This document shows, one piece after another, positions 20,575 through 46,745 of a DNA stretch of 64,000 nucleotides. The stretch covers positions 146,998-210,997 of the forward strand of contig CAYOQS010000002.1 in assembly GCA_964406185.1 (NCBI GenBank), given 5' to 3'. Every line of letters starts with the position of its first letter. Within the stretch, counting starts at the first letter, position 1. Source of the DNA: an uncultured Methanosarcinales archaeon (GTDB lineage: Archaea > Nanobdellota > Nanobdellia > Woesearchaeales > UBA11576). Made by a program: the position numbers and the translations under genes. Under the pieces are notes generated by a model that was not told the DNA's origin, made no database searches, and was given only the letters and a program-made list of their open reading frames with translations.

Positions 20575-20602
20575 GCTCCAAAACCATACTTTAGGGCTAT
20601 TT

Positions 20603-20689
20603 GGGCGCGTAGTTTAGCAAGGCTGCATCTTTTCATAAAAGCTGCACCAAAACATTATGGGATGCGCTCCCTTCGGTCGCTTACCCATA
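20603..20689 (+). other. tRNA-like 5' fragment with no T arm or 3' acceptor strand
   Basis: The first 15 nt (GGGCGCGTAGTTTAG) are identical to the tRNA-Val 5' end 123 nt downstream. GTTT...AAAC could form a D stem around an insertion. A 6-bp hairpin TATGGG/CCCATA has a 22-nt loop. No CGCGCCC partner lies before 20820. Confidence 0.4.
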
Positions 20690-20725: not shown

Positions 20726-20827
20726 TGGGCGCGTAGTTTAGTGGCTACATCGATACTGGTGTGTTGGTGCCGCAGATAACATCCCGTTGACGTCGGGAAG
20801 GTCCCCGGTTCAAGTCCGGGCGCGCCC
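20726..20827 (+). tRNA. tRNA-Val(GAC) with a ~29-nt insertion in the D-arm region
   Basis: Acceptor GGGCGCG/CGCGCCC plus discriminator A. Anticodon arm TCCCG-TTGACGT-CGGGA. Variable loop AGGTC. T arm CCCGG-TTCAAGT-CCGGG. 46 nt lie between positions 9 and 27 where 17 are expected (insertion about 20747-20775). Confidence 0.8.
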
Positions 20828-20837
20828 ATTTGAGAAA

Positions 20838-20874
20838 GACAAAATTCCGGACGAGTTTACGAGTCGGGATTTTG
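20838..20874 (+). repeat. GA-motif hairpin element, copy 1 (short form)
   Basis: Helix ACAAAATTCC/GGGATTTTGT, a bulged G, then GAC/GTC, tandem G.A/A.G and a G-C pair, closed by loop TTTA. Confidence 0.6.
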
Positions 20875-20888
20875 TGTTTTCAAATGCT

Positions 20889-20969
20889 TGATAATCCCGG
20901 ACGAGTTTCAAGCTCTGCTTGAAGTCTTACAGCATTTATGATGCTGAAAGAGTTGCGAGTCGGGATTAT
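20889..20969 (+). repeat. GA-motif hairpin element, copy 2, carrying a ~46-nt two-hairpin insertion in its loop
   Basis: Same arms as copy 1 (GATAATCCCGGACGAG ... GCGAGTCGGGATTATC). The loop holds TTCAAGC-tct-GCTTGAA (20906-20922) and CAGCAT-ttatg-ATGCTG (20929-20945). Confidence 0.6.
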
Positions 20970-21026
20970 CTTTGTATTGAATAAAGGCAGAAAATCGCCA
21001 AATGGTTTCCCAAAAAAGAGGTCATT

Positions 21027-43314: not shown

Positions 43315-43506
43315 CTTATTTCACCAGAAGCTAGAGAGCGTAATCTCGTGTTGTCAAGTTACGCAAAGCTCCCCCCCACCTCTCTAACCTGTTTTTTTTT
43401 TCTGTATATACTATGTTTTCAGGATTAATAAAGGTTGTTATAAGTCTTTTAAACTGATAAAGAAAGAATAAGTGGAAATAGAAAGATTTTGGAAAAAGGG
43501 AGGTCT

Positions 43507-44448
43507 TTACTCCTTTTTCTTCTTTTTCTTGGTCTTCTTGATCTCTTTTTCAAGGTCAAGCTTTTCGAGGAGCTCTTTGTACCTGTTCCTGATCGTGACT
43601 TCTGTCACTCCGGCCACGTCCGCCACTTCTCTTTGCGTCCTCTTCTCGCCATGTATCAGTGCTGATACGTATAGCGCCGCTGCTGCTATGCCTGTGGGAC
43701 CTCTTCCTGAGGTCAGCTCAGCCTTCTGGGCCTTCTCGAGTATCTCTACCGCTTTTGACTGTGTCTCTGCTGACAGCCTGAGTGAGCTTGAGAACCTTGC
43801 GATGTAGTCTGCAGGGTTTGAGGGCAGTATCGTGATGCCCAGCTCTCTGGTGACGAACCTGTAGGTCCTTCCGACCTCTTTCTTCTCTATGTTTGATGCT
43901 TCTGAGAGCTCGTCGAGTGTCCTTGGCACTTCATGCCTCCTGCATGCTGCGTAGAGCGAGCCTGCGACCACTGATTCCATGCTCCTTCCTCTCACGAGGC
44001 CTCTCTGCACTGCGAGGGTGTATATCCTTGCAGCCTCTTCCTCGACTGATTTCGGGAGTTTGAGGTATGAGCTGACTCTTTTCAGCTCTGCTAGCGCGAG
44101 TTTCAGGTTTCTTTCGATGGCTGTGCTTATCCTGTACTGCCATTTTCTGAGCCTGAAGAACTTGTTCTTGTCTTTTGACCCGAGCTTGTACAGGTCTGCT
44201 TTCTGCCCGACTTCTGTGCCGAGTCCCTGGTCGTACTGTGTGTACGTCATGGGAGCGCCTGTCCTGCGCTTGCTTTCGGTATCTTCGCTATCGAAGTCTC
44301 TCCATTCCTGTGTGAAGTCGACCATCTTCTCTTCGACGACAAGGCCGCAGTCTTTGCATATGACTTCTCCCTTGTCCTTGTTTATGAAGAGGTTTATCCC
44401 TCCACACTCCGGGCATTTCTTGATATATTCCTGGGTCATGATCGTCAC
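43507..44448 (-). CDS. tfb: transcription initiation factor IIB (TFB)
   Basis: Zn ribbon CPECGG...CKDCG, two cyclin-fold repeats (RGRSMESVVAGSLYAACR, GPTGIAAAALYVSA). SD AAGGTGA upstream. Lys-rich tail. Confidence 0.95.
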   Translation of the reverse strand: MTIMTQEYIKKCPECGGINLFINKDKGEVICKDCGLVVEEKMVDFTQEWRDFDSEDTESKRRTGAPMTYTQYDQGLGTEVGQKADLYKLGSKDKNKFFRLRKWQYRISTAIERNLKLALAELKRVSSYLKLPKSVEEEAARIYTLAVQRGLVRGRSMESVVAGSLYAACRRHEVPRTLDELSEASNIEKKEVGRTYRFVTRELGITILPSNPADYIARFSSSLRLSAETQSKAVEILEKAQKAELTSGRGPTGIAAAALYVSALIHGEKRTQREVADVAGVTEVTIRNRYKELLEKLDLEKEIKKTKKKKKKE

Positions 44449-44884
44449 CTTGATCGTTAGATAGAGCAGTCTGCCTGCTCTTTGGAAAGATTATTTATTT
44501 ACCACCCCAACTTTTTGCGAAAAAAATTTAAACCGTATTTATTTGAGTATCATGGTTACTACAATAGATTTATATAATTGTGATGTGCTTCTATATATAA
44601 ATATTTCGGTTTTGCGTAAGCTTTATATATTTCCGTAATGGTGAAAAAAGAAGCTGTTTAATGCTTTATATGATTTCTAAAGGAAATATGGGTGCTTTTT
44701 ATTGTTTTAGGGGGTTTATTAGGTTTTTTGGGGATTATTGATGATTTAAAGAGGTTTTCAAAGCCCTAAAATTTATATTCTGCTTTCCAAAGTTCTTTTT
44801 AAAGTCCGCCTGCCTTCTGATTTCTCTGCCCTGAAGATGGTGATGTGATCCACTCCATTTTCCCATATCCCTCCAAGAGATAGT

Positions 44885-44892
44885 TTTTTAAA
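44885..44892 (+). promoter_or_regulatory. TATA-like box (TTTTTAAA) upstream of the tRNA-Ser locus
   Basis: 31 nt before GCCGACG at 44924. No comparable box precedes the inner tRNA at 45033. Confidence 0.35.
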
Positions 44893-44923
44893 CAGAAATC
44901 TTAACCGCTCTCCCGGACCATTT

Positions 44924-45009
44924 GCCGACGTCGCATACTCAAAGCTTTTGGGCTTTGGTCGCGCCGTCAGCTTCATTCAAGACTGGAGAACCAGTTTCCT
45001 GACGGATAC
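44924..45009 (+). other. Ser-type tRNA 5' portion (acceptor 5' strand, D-arm region with hairpin insertion, variable-arm homologue), no T arm
   Basis: The first 17 nt match tRNA-Ser(UGA) at 14/17. 44977-45009 is 28/33 identical to 45109-45141. Contains hairpin CAAAGC-ttttgg-GCTTTG and a 7-bp helix CCGTCAG/CTGACGG. No canonical anticodon loop found. Confidence 0.4.
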
Positions 45010-45032
45010 ACAAAAAAATCCTTTGACGCTAA

Positions 45033-45166
45033 GCCAGCGTCGCATAATCTGGTACTTCGCGCGAGCGAAGGTTTACGCGAAGCGGAAAATTGCGCTGGTC
45101 TTGAAACCTCAAGACGAGATAACCAGTTTCCTAACGGATATCCCGGTTCAAATCCGGGCGCTGGCG
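45033..45166 (+). tRNA. tRNA-Ser(UGA), class II, with two insertions (D loop ~45055-45089; after position 37, 45106-45120)
   Basis: Acceptor GCCAGCG/CGCTGGC plus G. D stem GCAT/TTGC. Anticodon stem CTGGT/ACCAG with loop CTTGAA..A. Variable arm TTTCCTAACGGATAT. T arm CCCGG-TTCAAAT-CCGGG. Confidence 0.8.
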
Positions 45167-45185
45167 TCATATAGAAGGATTTTTT

Positions 45186-45290
45186 GGTACTGGAAACTCC
45201 TACGGAGTTTCCATGTATCCCGGTTCAAAATTTAAGCTACGCTTAAATGCTCAGCAAAGCGGAGCTTTGATGAATCTCCGGGCGTCGGCG
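45186..45290 (+). other. Ser-type tRNA 3' portion: perfect 10-bp hairpin, T arm split by a 47-nt insertion, 3' acceptor strand
   Basis: TGGAAACTCC-tac-GGAGTTTCCA (45191-45213). CCCGG TTCAAA [45230-45276] T CCGGG. CGTCGGC+G is the exact complement of GCCGACG at 44924. Confidence 0.45.
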
Positions 45291-45326
45291 TAACAAGCGT
45301 AAGCGGGTGGAGTTGGCGGACGGGCC
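45278..45326 (+). repeat. direct repeat R1 (begins in the tRNA 3' end)
   Basis: The 49 nt CCGGGCGTCGGCGTAACAAGCGTAAGCGGGTGGAGTTGGCGGACGGGCC recur at 46119-46167 with 3 mismatches. Confidence 0.9.
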
Positions 45327-45388
45327 AGCGCCCGAAGGGGGTAAGCGTGTCCGGGTGGAGGGTTTAGTTAGAAAAGAAAGTCCTGCTA

Positions 45389-45799
45389 TTATTTGCTCTT
45401 CAATATCTCGACTACTTCTTGTGTCTGGTATATCTTAACAGCATCCTGATCCTTCAATCGTTTATCGTTCGACCAGATTCCGCAATTCAATTTCATCGCC
45501 AATGCTAAATACATCGCGTCTTTTTCATCGGGAGAAATTAGTTTGGCTCGACCCGATAATTGAGCAGTTTCCTCTTTTGGAATGGTTGAGATAACTTCTT
45601 TTAGGCAATGCATGATTTCAATAAAATTCTCTCGTGTCCTTCCGGTCTTTTGCAGTATTAAATCTTCATATTTCATGAATTCTGTAATCAAGAATTCGGG
45701 AGCGTACAACTTTAAGTTCTCGTCGAACAACAATTCAGAAGTATAACTGTCTTTGATCAATGCGGCGAACAGGATATTTGCATCAAGAACAAGTTCCAT
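45389..45799 (-). CDS. vapC: PIN-domain toxin (VapC-like)
   Basis: MELVLDANILFAA (first acidic residue), later acidic residues, 136 aa. Abuts the upstream antitoxin gene. Confidence 0.8.
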   Translation of the reverse strand: MELVLDANILFAALIKDSYTSELLFDENLKLYAPEFLITEFMKYEDLILQKTGRTRENFIEIMHCLKEVISTIPKEETAQLSGRAKLISPDEKDAMYLALAMKLNCGIWSNDKRLKDQDAVKIYQTQEVVEILKSK

Positions 45800-45800
45800 C

Positions 45801-46025
45801 TTAATTATTGTTATATCTCTTTGCAGCTTTGGCGCTTAGTTCTCTGCCTAGCTTAAGAGCATCTTCTTCTGTAAACTCGCTGTCTTTGGTAAACTTCTTG
45901 AACTTCTCCATCATCTCAAGCTTTCTTTTGATTGCTTCTCTTGCTACAGCACTCCAGTTAAGTTCGGGAAATTTGTCCATGTCCTGCTTCATGTTTTCAG
46001 GTACTGATAGGGTTATACTTACCAT
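45801..46025 (-). CDS. vapB: antitoxin (VapB-like)
   Basis: 74 aa. MVSITLSVPENMKQDMDKF...AREAIKRKLE. Operon partner of the PIN gene. AT-rich promoter region 46026-46100. Confidence 0.6.
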   Translation of the reverse strand: MVSITLSVPENMKQDMDKFPELNWSAVAREAIKRKLEMMEKFKKFTKDSEFTEEDALKLGRELSAKAAKRYNNN

Positions 46026-46118
46026 ATTATCACCTTATGTGTATTACGTTTAATATGTATAATATGTTTATATATTTAAAGGTTTTGTTTAGCCATGCCT
46101 GATCCGTGCTGCTCGTGT

Positions 46119-46167
46119 CCGGGCGTCGGCGTAACGAGTGTAAGCGGGTGGAGCTGGCGGACGGGCC
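46119..46167 (+). repeat. direct repeat R2
   Basis: 46/49 identity to R1. Preceded by CTCGTGT, so 46112-46131 (CTCGTGTCCGGGCGTCGGCG) also repeats at 46186-46205. Confidence 0.9.
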
Positions 46168-46185
46168 CAGAGCATCTATGATGCT

Positions 46186-46205
46186 CTCGTGTCCGGGCGT
46201 CGGTG
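46186..46205 (+). repeat. short direct repeat R3 (tRNA 3'-end-like)
   Basis: CTCGTGTCCGGGCGTCGGTG, 19/20 identical to 46112-46131. Confidence 0.85.
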
Positions 46206-46216
46206 TTTTTATCCTC

Positions 46217-46567
46217 TCACATCCTCTCCATCCCGAATGACTTGAGCACATCCTTTATCTCATCGATCACTTTCTGTTGGTCTTTCTTTTCGGACATCCT
46301 GACGAATTTTATCAGAAGATGGGCTAGTTCATCTTCTGATGCGAACTTGAGCATGTGTCCGTCTGTGATGAAATAGAAGCGGTACTTGCCATGCTTCAGC
46401 TCTTTTATTGCTACTCCGCCGACATTTGCCAGGCTCTTTCCTTTCTTCGGGTGTCTCTCAAGAGACTTTAGTAGAAGGAATATCTTCCCTGATCCGCCTT
46501 TGAACCTGCGGATTACCTCCTTCACCAGGAGGTCAGTTATTATGACTCTGGCCATTTTTCTTGGCAT
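46217..46567 (-). CDS. RelE/ParE-like toxin (tentative)
   Basis: 116 aa. KELKHGKYRFYFITDG resembles the RelE/HigB-type core. Overlaps the upstream small antitoxin ORF by 35 nt as called, so the start is uncertain. Confidence 0.45.
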   Translation of the reverse strand: MPRKMARVIITDLLVKEVIRRFKGGSGKIFLLLKSLERHPKKGKSLANVGGVAIKELKHGKYRFYFITDGHMLKFASEDELAHLLIKFVRMSEKKDQQKVIDEIKDVLKSFGMERM

Positions 46568-46745
46568 AGGCTATCGCGTCATCTATGCTTACAGAGTCTG
46601 ATTCGTCGTACAGGTAGTCCCGCAGAAGCTGCTTGTGTGCGATCTCATACATCTTTCGTATGACATCTTCATATGAGTCGCCCGCCCTGCCGAGGTTGCG
46701 CAGCTTATCCTTCAGCTCGTTTGATATTGCTATTGTGGTTGCCAT
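46533..46745 (-). CDS. small antitoxin-like protein
   Basis: 70 aa. MATTIAISNELKDKLRNLGRAGDSYEDVIRKMYE (beta strand then helices). Positioned upstream of the toxin-like ORF. Confidence 0.5.
   Translation of the reverse strand: MATTIAISNELKDKLRNLGRAGDSYEDVIRKMYEIAHKQLLRDYLYDESDSVSIDDAIAYAKKNGQSHNN

Follow-up and report, generated by a model that had tools for sequence, protein, structure and literature searches.

The locus analyzed here, at which a complete tRNA-Ser(UGA) gene lies inside a second tRNA-Ser gene, is located in a 64,000-nt stretch of DNA from an uncultured archaeon of the Woesearchaeales (assembly GCA_964406185.1, contig CAYOQS010000002.1, positions 146,998 to 210,997 of the forward strand; hereafter the window, to which positions refer unless another locus is named). 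The outer gene is interrupted by a 209-nt insert (45009-45217) that consists of two palindromic units with TA dinucleotides at their junctions, and the inner gene is enclosed by the arms of the first of these units. On the evidence set out below, the outer gene was probably disrupted and functionally replaced by the gene nested in it. Loci used for comparison are referred to by handles (L001 and so on), and the coordinates of the features of the window are collected in Table 1.

Two tRNA-Ser genes at one locus

Following removal of both of its introns, the inner gene was called by ARAGORN as a class II tRNA-Ser(tga) with G73; the construct retained one extra base, A45088. The discriminator is G45166 and CCA is not encoded. 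The D-loop intron has a full bulge-helix-bulge (BHB) motif, with H strand UCUG (45048-51), H′ strand CGGA (45083-86), bulges GU/A and AA/A, an inner helix of 7 bp (45055-61/45076-82) and an outer helix of 3 bp. Splicing at these BHB boundaries gives the D arm GCAUAAUCUGGUAUUGC, which is that of L002. In the canonical 37/38 intron, the anticodon stem serves as an outer helix of 6 bp, H and H′ are CUUG (45100-03) and CGAG (45115-18), and the bulges are AA/A and AU/A. Both introns were the top match in the register scan described below, at offset 0/0, the register needed to restore the tRNA. L208 has a stand-alone gene, located behind a TATA-like box, that closely resembles the inner gene through its 5′ part, D-loop intron included. 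As judged from its sequence, the inner gene is a normal member of the tRNA-Ser(UGA) genes of this lineage, since it splices to a tRNA called by ARAGORN, carries BHB introns and has a stand-alone likeness in L208.

The outer gene is intact at its acceptor stem, variable arm and T arm and degenerate in its D and anticodon arms. The acceptor strands match at 7/7 positions that are fixed by the adjoining T arm, for which the chance expectation is approximately 6e-5. The T-loop intron (59/60) has an intact BHB motif, with H UUCA (45224-27), H′ UGAA (45271-74), bulges AA/A and UC/U and the T stem as outer helix; in the scan, the T-loop-restoring register, with an outer helix of 5 bp and an inner helix of 2 bp, was tied with the adjacent −1/+1 register. 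BHB introns at this position or within one base of it were also found in L007, L008, L016, L029, L048, L062, L070, and L208. When the T-loop intron was inspected for a C/D-box small RNA, UGAUGA was found and no D box. In the D and anticodon region, the stretch expected as ...GGTATTGCG-CTGGT-CTTGAA reads ...GGTCGCG-CCGTCAG-CTTCAT, with an extra hairpin ahead of it. The 7-bp helix CCGUCAG/CUGACGG that can form here is at chance level, approximately 0.2 such helices being expected per 87-nt stretch by our estimate.

Removal of the large insert and the T-loop intron from the outer gene gave no tRNA with ARAGORN. In addition, 215,425 variants of the outer gene with one or two deletions were generated and yielded only scattered, mutually inconsistent calls, each of which required implausible deletions, 4-nt anticodons, or mispaired stems. 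The outer gene of the window thus appears to be dead and to produce no tRNA any longer.

A homolog of transcription factor B (TFB) is encoded at 43507-44448 on the reverse strand, and its close relatives are found nearly all in metagenome-assembled genomes of Woesearchaeota/Nanoarchaeota, which assigns the window to a DPANN archaeon. A single tRNA-Ser gene, divergent from and upstream of tfb, is present in approximately 20 of the 79 tfb-linked loci, with anticodon UGA in most of them and GGA in L048 and L061. The window sequence 44885-44908 matches, at 24/24 positions, the sequence that precedes the single tRNA-Ser(UGA) gene in L001, which identifies the outer gene as the resident one: by position, it is the ortholog of the single tRNA-Ser(UGA) gene located upstream of tfb in many Woesearchaeota. 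The putative promoter of the nested locus lies in this same region (44883-44908). For two inspected loci of TFB relatives, P0001 and P0002 (P0007 was left out), tRNA-Ser was not immediately upstream of tfb.

The tfb-linked orthologs are intron-rich, with introns in the D loop and at 29/30, 37/38, 53/54, and 59/60, and as many as four introns per gene in L039, L048, L017, and L062. The 29/30 introns of L039 and L048 are homologous and end in GCGUAA, and L017, L048, and L062 have large 53/54 introns between T stem and T loop. One 29/30 intron (L048) and one 53/54 intron (L017) were checked by hand and obey the BHB rule. Because the tRNA-Ser genes of this family are intron-rich, both Ser genes of the window were missed in the native locus, for which no tRNA was called by ARAGORN and none by Rfam at the gathering threshold. 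Logan contigs from two sequencing runs (SRR15425350 and SRR15425351) were 100% identical to window positions 43393-45306 (1.9 kb, covering the whole locus), and misassembly is therefore unlikely.

The sequence observations of an initial annotation, made from the letters of the window, were all reproduced in this analysis except for a single coordinate; they comprise the exact complementarity of GCCGACG and CGTCGGC, the T stem with a loop split by 47 nt (confirmed here as a BHB intron), the complete inner class II tRNA that needs two insertions removed, the paralogy of the two genes (14/17 identical nucleotides at the 5′ end and 28/33 for 44977-45009 versus 45109-45141), the 7-bp helix 44964-70/44999-45005, and the 10-bp hairpin in the insert. 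The motif CTGGAGA, which had been placed at 44883-89, is present at 44983-89, a slip of 100 nt. The proposal that CTGGAGA and CTGGAAA are Ser(GGA)-type loops had to be abandoned: by homology with the inner gene and L002, the former consists of the H′ strand and bulge with which the canonical intron ends, the latter is the 5′ arm of the unit 2 hairpin, and in the related locus L092 outer and inner genes are both UGA. The 12-bp helix around the inner gene, the junction TAs, the T6 run, and the repeats of the outer 3′ end further downstream (46118, 46192) are additions to that annotation.

Table 1. Features of the nested tRNA-Ser locus and its surroundings (window positions)
Feature	Position	Strand	Description
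Putative promoter region	44883-44908	+	TATA-like TTTTTTAAAC at 44883-92, ~36 nt upstream of outer 5′ end
Outer tRNA-Ser, 5′ part, degenerate	44924-45008	+	Alignment to inner gene and relatives
Outer acceptor 5′ strand	44924-44930	+	GCCGACG, pairs with CGTCGGC 45283-89
Outer D region	44937-44963	+	Inserted hairpin at 44940-57
Outer anticodon stem/loop homolog, diverged	44964-44976	+	CCGTCAG-CTTCAT versus expected CTGGT-CTTGAA
Outer canonical-intron 3′ end	44977-44989	+	Homology with inner gene
Outer anticodon-stem 3′ strand	44990-44994	+	ACCAG; alignment
Outer variable arm, intact	44995-45008	+	Alignment
Palindromic unit 1	45009-45187	+	12-bp arms 45013-45024 (AAAAAATCCTTT) and 45174-45185 (GAAGGATTTTTT), perfectly complementary
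Inner tRNA-Ser(UGA) gene	45033-45166	+	Exons 45033-45053, 45089-45105, 45121-45166 (spliced alignment and BHB register scan)
Inner-gene D-loop intron	45054-45088	+	35 nt, full BHB motif
Inner-gene canonical 37/38 intron	45106-45120	+	15 nt; same boundaries from BHB scan and spliced alignment
T6 run in 3′ arm of unit 1	45180-45185	+	14 nt downstream of inner tRNA
Palindromic unit 2	45190-45215	+	26 nt, CTGGAAACTCC-TACG-GGAGTTTCCATG; perfect 10-bp hairpin 45191-45213
Outer tRNA-Ser, 3′ part	45218-45290	+	Alignment and sequence check
Outer T-stem 5′ strand	45219-45223	+	CCCGG
Outer T loop	45224-45229 and 45277	+	Split by intron
Outer T-loop intron (59/60)	45230-45276	+	47 nt, intact BHB motif
Outer T-stem 3′ strand	45278-45282	+	CCGGG
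Outer acceptor 3′ strand	45283-45289	+	CGTCGGC
Outer discriminator G	45290	+	Alignment
Att-like direct repeat, copy 1	45277-45326	+	Last 14 nt of outer tRNA and 36 nt downstream
Toxin-antitoxin-like cassette between copies 1 and 2	45389-46025	−	PIN-domain protein 45389-45799 and 74-aa upstream partner 45801-46025
Att-like direct repeat, copy 2	46118-46167	+	94% identical to copy 1 over 50 nt
Third copy of outer tRNA 3′ end	46192-46210	+	TCCGGGCGTCGGTG; 14-mer at 46192-205, then TTTTT

The palindromic insert

The insert is located at the junction of variable arm and T arm of the outer gene, between GGATA and TCCCGG, and is laid out as TA, unit 1, TA, unit 2, TA. The split site is itself a DNA palindrome, GGA-TA-TCC, and the uninterrupted sequence is GGATATCC. 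Unit 1 is flanked by TA at 45007-08 and 45188-89, unit 2 by TA at 45188-89 and 45216-17. The arms of unit 1, which are paired in the minimum free energy fold, enclose the inner gene together with 8 nt before it (45025-32, GACGCTAA) and 7 nt after it (45167-73, TCATATA). Runs of T4 to T6 are carried by the palindromic units. Transcription in archaea terminates at oligo-T, and the run of six T that unit 1 carries in its 3′ arm is a likely terminator of this type.

Empty sites with a single TA (GGATATCCC, GGTATTGCG) were found in L002, L003, and L209, and sites filled as TA-unit-TA-unit-TA in the window, L006, and L092. One TA in the empty site and a TA on each side of the filled one is the pattern of a target-site duplication, and a blunt insertion of ACA...TGT fits equally well. 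The units end in inverted repeats: the arms of every unit are perfectly complementary over 8-13 bp, the lengths in the three diverged genomes being 12, 10, 13, 8, 10, and 9 bp.

Four palindromic insertions (window, L006, and two sites in L092) and three positive controls were subjected to a BHB register scan covering ±14 nt at both junctions. The three ordinary introns of the locus came out at the top, or tied for it, with the correct offset, and no consistent tRNA-restoring solution was obtained for the four palindromic insertions. In all four, the junctions stand opposite each other in an unbulged helix, GGAUACA/UGUAUCC, and not in bulges. The palindromic insert is not a BHB intron.

Paired units were seen only in tRNA-Ser genes (two sites in L092, one in L006, and one in the window). 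The element-bearing copies of tRNA-Ser adjoin an intact tRNA-Ser(UGA) in 4/4 cases, and none was found in a lone gene. A scan of metagenomes for TGTATCCCRGTTCAAA returned at least 120 stretches, and L092 was the sole relevant one among the matches listed. Two scans of viral contigs for further unit copies gave nothing, or phage tRNA arrays only. The units are candidate small TA-duplicating inverted-repeat elements, of the foldback kind or resembling miniature inverted-repeat transposable elements (MITEs); they may be mobile, as suggested by the TA flanks, the inverted arms, and the occurrence of units at more than one TA (two sites).

Other hairpin clusters were also noted. At 2400-2860 of L047, five hairpins of the form (T)GCA(C)-AAGAAnnnn-loop-nnnnTTCTT-TGTGC/GCAC are found within approximately 450 nt, in a layout similar to that of the TA-flanked units with GCAC instead of GTAC. 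Across this span no convincing gene was recognized, only short overlapping open reading frames (ORFs), none of which was searched, and Rfam gave no match; the suspicion that the cluster is an RNase P RNA gene with insertions was not supported by Rfam and was dropped. At 9847-9899 of L092, two adjoining perfect hairpins (9 and 10 bp) lie in frame within an ORF, in a linker of what we take, from an unaided reading of the translation, to be a SelU-like protein (tRNA 2-selenouridine synthase). These hairpins recall palindromic elements inserted in coding genes.

Related loci and repeats of the outer 3′ end

A second example of the nesting, L092, is a metagenome contig that was found by a scan for the junction pattern. 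Its outer tRNA-Ser(UGA) gene (GCCAACG...CGTTGGCG) has all exons intact, and its inner tRNA-Ser(UGA) gene (GCCGTGG...CCACGGCG) is intronless and lies between the 13-bp arms of a unit 1, with unit 2 adjoining. A second two-unit insertion is present at another TA, in the D loop (GGTA/.../TATTGCG). The inner gene and the outer gene stripped of its inserts were each called as tRNA-Ser(tga) by ARAGORN. Compensated pairs in the acceptor stem (A4:U69 vs G4:C69) and in the T stem (A52:U62 vs G52:C62) distinguish the outer gene of L092 from that of the window. The D arms of the inner alleles are of different types, TCGCAT in the window and TGGCAC in L092, and the two nested loci therefore arose, or were reloaded, independently. 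In L209-L211, which are relatives of L092 (the neighboring Nudix gene is 84% identical), the same resident gene is present without units and without a nested gene.

The two units are found at the identical tRNA position in L006, where unit 1 is empty and has a 3-nt loop. An orphan 5′ tRNA fragment accompanied by a full gene is the layout of the L006 tRNA-Ser and of the tRNA-Val of the window. The latter, tRNA-Val(GAC) at 20727-20829, has a D-loop intron of approximately 27-29 nt and was misplaced by ARAGORN at 20757-20828. An exact 15-nt copy of its 5′ end is located at 20602-20616 and followed by a 110-nt spacer; there is no second 3′ end. Just downstream of tRNA-Val, at 20840-20975, long imperfect palindromes are found (ACAAAATTCCGGACGAG...CGAGTCGGGATTTTGT and GATAATCCCGGACGAG...CGAGTCGGGATTATC), the first of which resembles unit 1 of L006. 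In L208, the stand-alone tRNA-Ser(UGA) gene (1822-2090) has three introns, and its T-loop intron resembles that of the outer gene of the window. At 66 nt past this gene there is a remnant of 13 nt (TCGGGCGTTGGCG), left from a 3′ end of a different, resident type, and a seryl-tRNA synthetase gene lies approximately 400 nt downstream on the opposite strand.

The window contains the 3′ end of the outer gene three times. Copies 1 and 2 are att-like (attachment site-like) direct repeats, and the third copy probably represents the 3′ end and terminator that the resident gene had originally. In the PIN-domain protein encoded between copies 1 and 2, PIN_2 was matched with E = 2.9e-25; this toxin was the only Pfam match between the window repeats, and no integrase was found there. 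Look-ups of the exact protein sequences of the toxin and of the 313-aa TFB returned no match. Direct repeats of 50 nt that start inside the tRNA 3′ end delimit a unit of 841 bp within 45277-46210, and a truncated second unit (46132-46191) precedes the third tRNA-end copy. More small toxin-antitoxin-like ORFs follow at 46217-46745, one of them with a sub-threshold match to a VapB antitoxin.

Similar traces were found elsewhere: a Phage_integrase gene directly follows tRNA-Ser in L070, a Bro-N protein is encoded at L001, and remnants of the tRNA-Ser 3′ end or att-like scars are also present in L030, L032, and L208. In L030 (~3670-3474, reverse strand) and L032 (~3680-3498, reverse strand), these are repeats of the tRNA-Ser(UGA) 3′ end and its flank downstream of the gene. 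The threefold outer 3′ end, the PIN cassette, the integrase of L070, and the scars in L030, L032, and L208 mark the locus as a hot spot for integrating elements. Integration accounts for 45277-45326 and the two downstream copies and not for the nesting.

Origin of the nested locus and comparison with known systems

The explanation that we favor, with moderate confidence, is that the resident tRNA-Ser(UGA) gene was disrupted and functionally replaced by the nested tRNA-Ser(UGA) gene. Small palindromic units, one with a complete tRNA-Ser(UGA) gene inside, would have inserted at a TA of the resident gene and opened it; the nested copy would then have taken over the function while the resident gene decayed. 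Transcription would start at the outer promoter, pass through the decayed outer 5′ half as a leader of approximately 110 nt, continue through the inner pre-tRNA, and end at T6 in the downstream arm of unit 1. The inner pre-tRNA would be freed by RNase P together with a 3′ nuclease, the splicing endonuclease would cut out the two BHB introns, a ligase would join the exons, and CCA would be added. The product would be an 84-nt tRNA-Ser(UGA), the outer gene yielding none. The outer 3′ end would meanwhile have served as an attachment site, giving rise to the three direct copies and the PIN-toxin cassette. In the least certain step, insertion into an essential tRNA gene would have been tolerated since the element brought a spare copy. 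This agrees with one of the two possibilities raised by the initial annotation, a gene broken by recombination or integration, which is supported by the tfb-linked ortholog, the TA-flanked palindromes, the degenerate D and anticodon arms, and the triplicated 3′ end.

Several observations weigh against replacement by a mobile unit. Perfectly paired arms in three genomes suggest selection on structure or independent recent insertions rather than passive decay, and decay of the outer gene is limited to the D and anticodon region, with acceptor, variable arm, T arm, and T-loop BHB motif intact. The intact outer exons of L092 fit a very recent insertion and equally well an outer gene that still works; moreover, the T6 run of the D-loop units of L092 lies upstream of the inner gene, which is awkward for co-transcription from the outer promoter. 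As to mobility, a hairpin scan of approximately 0.66 Mb of Woesearchaeota loci found paired units in L006 and L092 and no further copies, TA-flanked palindromes were not clearly commoner in the same loci than in shuffled sequence (20 vs 9-18), and no transposase was identified for the units. The transcription start, the terminator, and the processing steps given above are deduced from sequence.

The other possibility raised at the outset, a nested or split tRNA with unusual processing, would amount to a functional tRNA-in-tRNA that is split in cis. One transcript would give both tRNAs; the inner one would be cut out by RNase P and a 3′ nuclease, and the outer halves, held together by the 12-bp, GGAUACA/UGUAUCC, and acceptor helices, would be trimmed and ligated or would act as a two-piece tRNA. 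The perfect outer acceptor stem (7/7), with two compensated pairs that differ from the inner gene, speaks for such an arrangement, as do a 12-bp helix placed like the leader/trailer helices of split tRNAs and hairpins that remain perfect across genomes. In L092, the outer gene without its inserts is a flawless tRNA-Ser(UGA) that differs from the outer gene of the window by compensated acceptor and T-stem pairs. However, no BHB motif is present at the insert in any tRNA-restoring register, whereas every ordinary intron passes; the exon-intron junctions oppose each other within an unbulged helix; and the outer gene of the window has no usable D or anticodon arm. The annotation had already noted that the flanks form no normal cloverleaf, and the same result was obtained here with ARAGORN and among the deletion variants. 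T5-T6 runs separate the inner gene from the outer 3′ half in the window and in L092, the two L092 genes would give the same isoacceptor, so that the second would be unneeded, and the non-orthologous inner alleles (TCGCAT vs TGGCAC) indicate repeated insertion instead of an old conserved design. A functional cis-split tRNA is thus unlikely in this window, where unusual processing found no support. For a locus of the L092 type, and perhaps formerly for that of the window, there is a slim chance that one transcript gives two tRNA-Ser, the outer halves being rejoined by a BHB-independent route; this small probability is retained because the outer gene of L092 is flawless, the pairs are compensated, and the hairpins are perfect in three genomes. 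If true, the list of disrupted tRNA genes would gain a new class (tRNA-bearing introns or cis-split tRNAs), and TA-flanked palindromes would be a new signal for RNA excision.

Possible as well, if doubtful, is that no mobile element was involved and that the locus carries scars of local duplication or recombination, through integrase-mediated or homologous exchange between tRNA-Ser alleles, with incidental hairpins such as bidirectional terminators having an A run and a T run. This would suit the 28/33 identity of inner and outer genes over intron 3′ end and variable arm, their complete identity over 14 nt of the T arm, the demonstrable recombination hot spot, the orphan 5′ fragments at the L006 tRNA-Ser and the tRNA-Val of the window, the ~0.66 Mb scanned without extra unit copies, and a published model in which tRNA fragments derive from mobile-element integration (PMC3293823). 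An integrase crossover, however, gives direct repeats of a tRNA end, not a whole gene between perfect inverted arms. The two-unit layout with junction TAs is shared by three genomes at one and the same tRNA position and is repeated at a second TA site of L092, the close relatives of which have no units at all. Very improbable is an outer gene that encodes an unusual tRNA such as a selenocysteine tRNA (tRNA-Sec) with anticodon UCA, having a 9-bp acceptor stem, a long D stem with a 4-nt loop, and CCGUCAG/CUGACGG as an anticodon stem of 6-7 bp. tRNA-Sec has 13 bp in acceptor plus T stem (9/4 or 8/5), a 6-bp anticodon stem, a loop CUUCAxx, and a purine at position 37. The loop beyond CCGUCAG indeed starts with CUUCA, a 4-nt loop caps the 7-bp hairpin 44940-57, the acceptor stem could be lengthened by U8·G and C9:G, and 329 brute-force variants were labeled SeC(tca) by ARAGORN. 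These calls need arbitrary deletions and contain mispaired stems, the extended-acceptor potential is shared by the ordinary inner gene, and the stretch aligns as a diverged normal anticodon arm. With stems totaling 9/3 or 8/4 bp and not 13, a U at position 37, and no BHB motif to remove the 21 extra loop nucleotides, tRNA-Sec(UCA) was rejected for the outer 5′ half. A chimeric join of two tRNA-Ser alleles from a mixed population is hardly credible: the alleles are alike and the Logan contigs break at the att repeat, but two separately assembled runs agree completely over the locus, and the unrelated contig L092 has the same architecture with different sequences.

Under replacement of the resident gene by its nested copy, the loci form a series within one gene family, from intact (L209) through fresh insertion with a nested copy (L092) and decay (window) to fragments (L006, L208). 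The series suggests a route to in-place replacement of a tRNA gene and points to very small palindromic elements as a candidate class whose members bring with them a copy of the interrupted gene. With its recurrence in a second metagenome, the nesting looks like recurring tRNA-gene replacement and not like a new mode of splicing. Such loci may mislead tRNA inventories of DPANN genomes and claims of missing tRNAs. Disrupted tRNA genes of archaea (intron-rich, split, and permuted) are central to the debate on how tRNA genes break and re-form, and the events at the DNA level are rarely caught. We found no account in the literature of one tRNA gene nested in another.

Archaeal tRNA genes with multiple introns, including BHB introns at non-canonical positions, are known from Thermoproteales, ARMAN, and other DPANN archaea (PMC4090602, PMC4033280). 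The D-loop and 37/38 introns of the inner gene and the T-loop intron of the outer gene are proper BHB introns of this kind. Unlike them, the 209-nt insert has no BHB motif, is made up of palindromes with TA flanks, and encloses an entire tRNA gene. Nanoarchaeum equitans and Caldivirga maquilingensis are known for split and tri-split tRNAs, and Thermofilum pendens for permuted tRNAs (PMC3218864). As in split tRNAs, the parts of one tRNA are separated in the DNA and a complementary helix, here of 12 bp, stands beside the break. In contrast to split tRNAs, the parts in the window lie in cis, 209 nt apart and apparently under one promoter, the helix has no BHB at the exon junction, the 5′ part is unable to form D and anticodon arms, and the intervening sequence is another tRNA of the same specificity.

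Integrases of the pNOB8 or SSV type target tRNA genes. The closest published model is that for a tRNA-Thr fragment of Caldiarchaeum subterraneum, which was attributed to integration of a mobile element (Sugahara et al. 2012, PMC3293823). As in integrase-disrupted tRNA genes, direct repeats of the tRNA 3′ end flank cargo in the window, orphan fragments lie beside a complete replacement gene (L006, L208, and tRNA-Val of the window), and an integrase adjoins the orthologous tRNA in L070. The nested locus differs in that the replacement gene is inside the disrupted gene, between inverted arms, that no integrase is left in the window, and that the disrupting units are 26-nt palindromes and not kilobase elements.

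Small palindromic insertion elements include TA-duplicating MITEs of the IS630/Tc1-mariner type, foldback elements, and the Rickettsia palindromic elements, which are found in coding and RNA genes. We know of no element described as carrying a passenger tRNA of the same specificity as its target gene, nor of a transposase for the units found here. The units share with MITEs, foldback elements, and Rickettsia elements the TA at both junctions, the terminal inverted repeats, a non-autonomous size, and insertion in loop regions of a structured RNA gene, and they are far smaller than MITEs.

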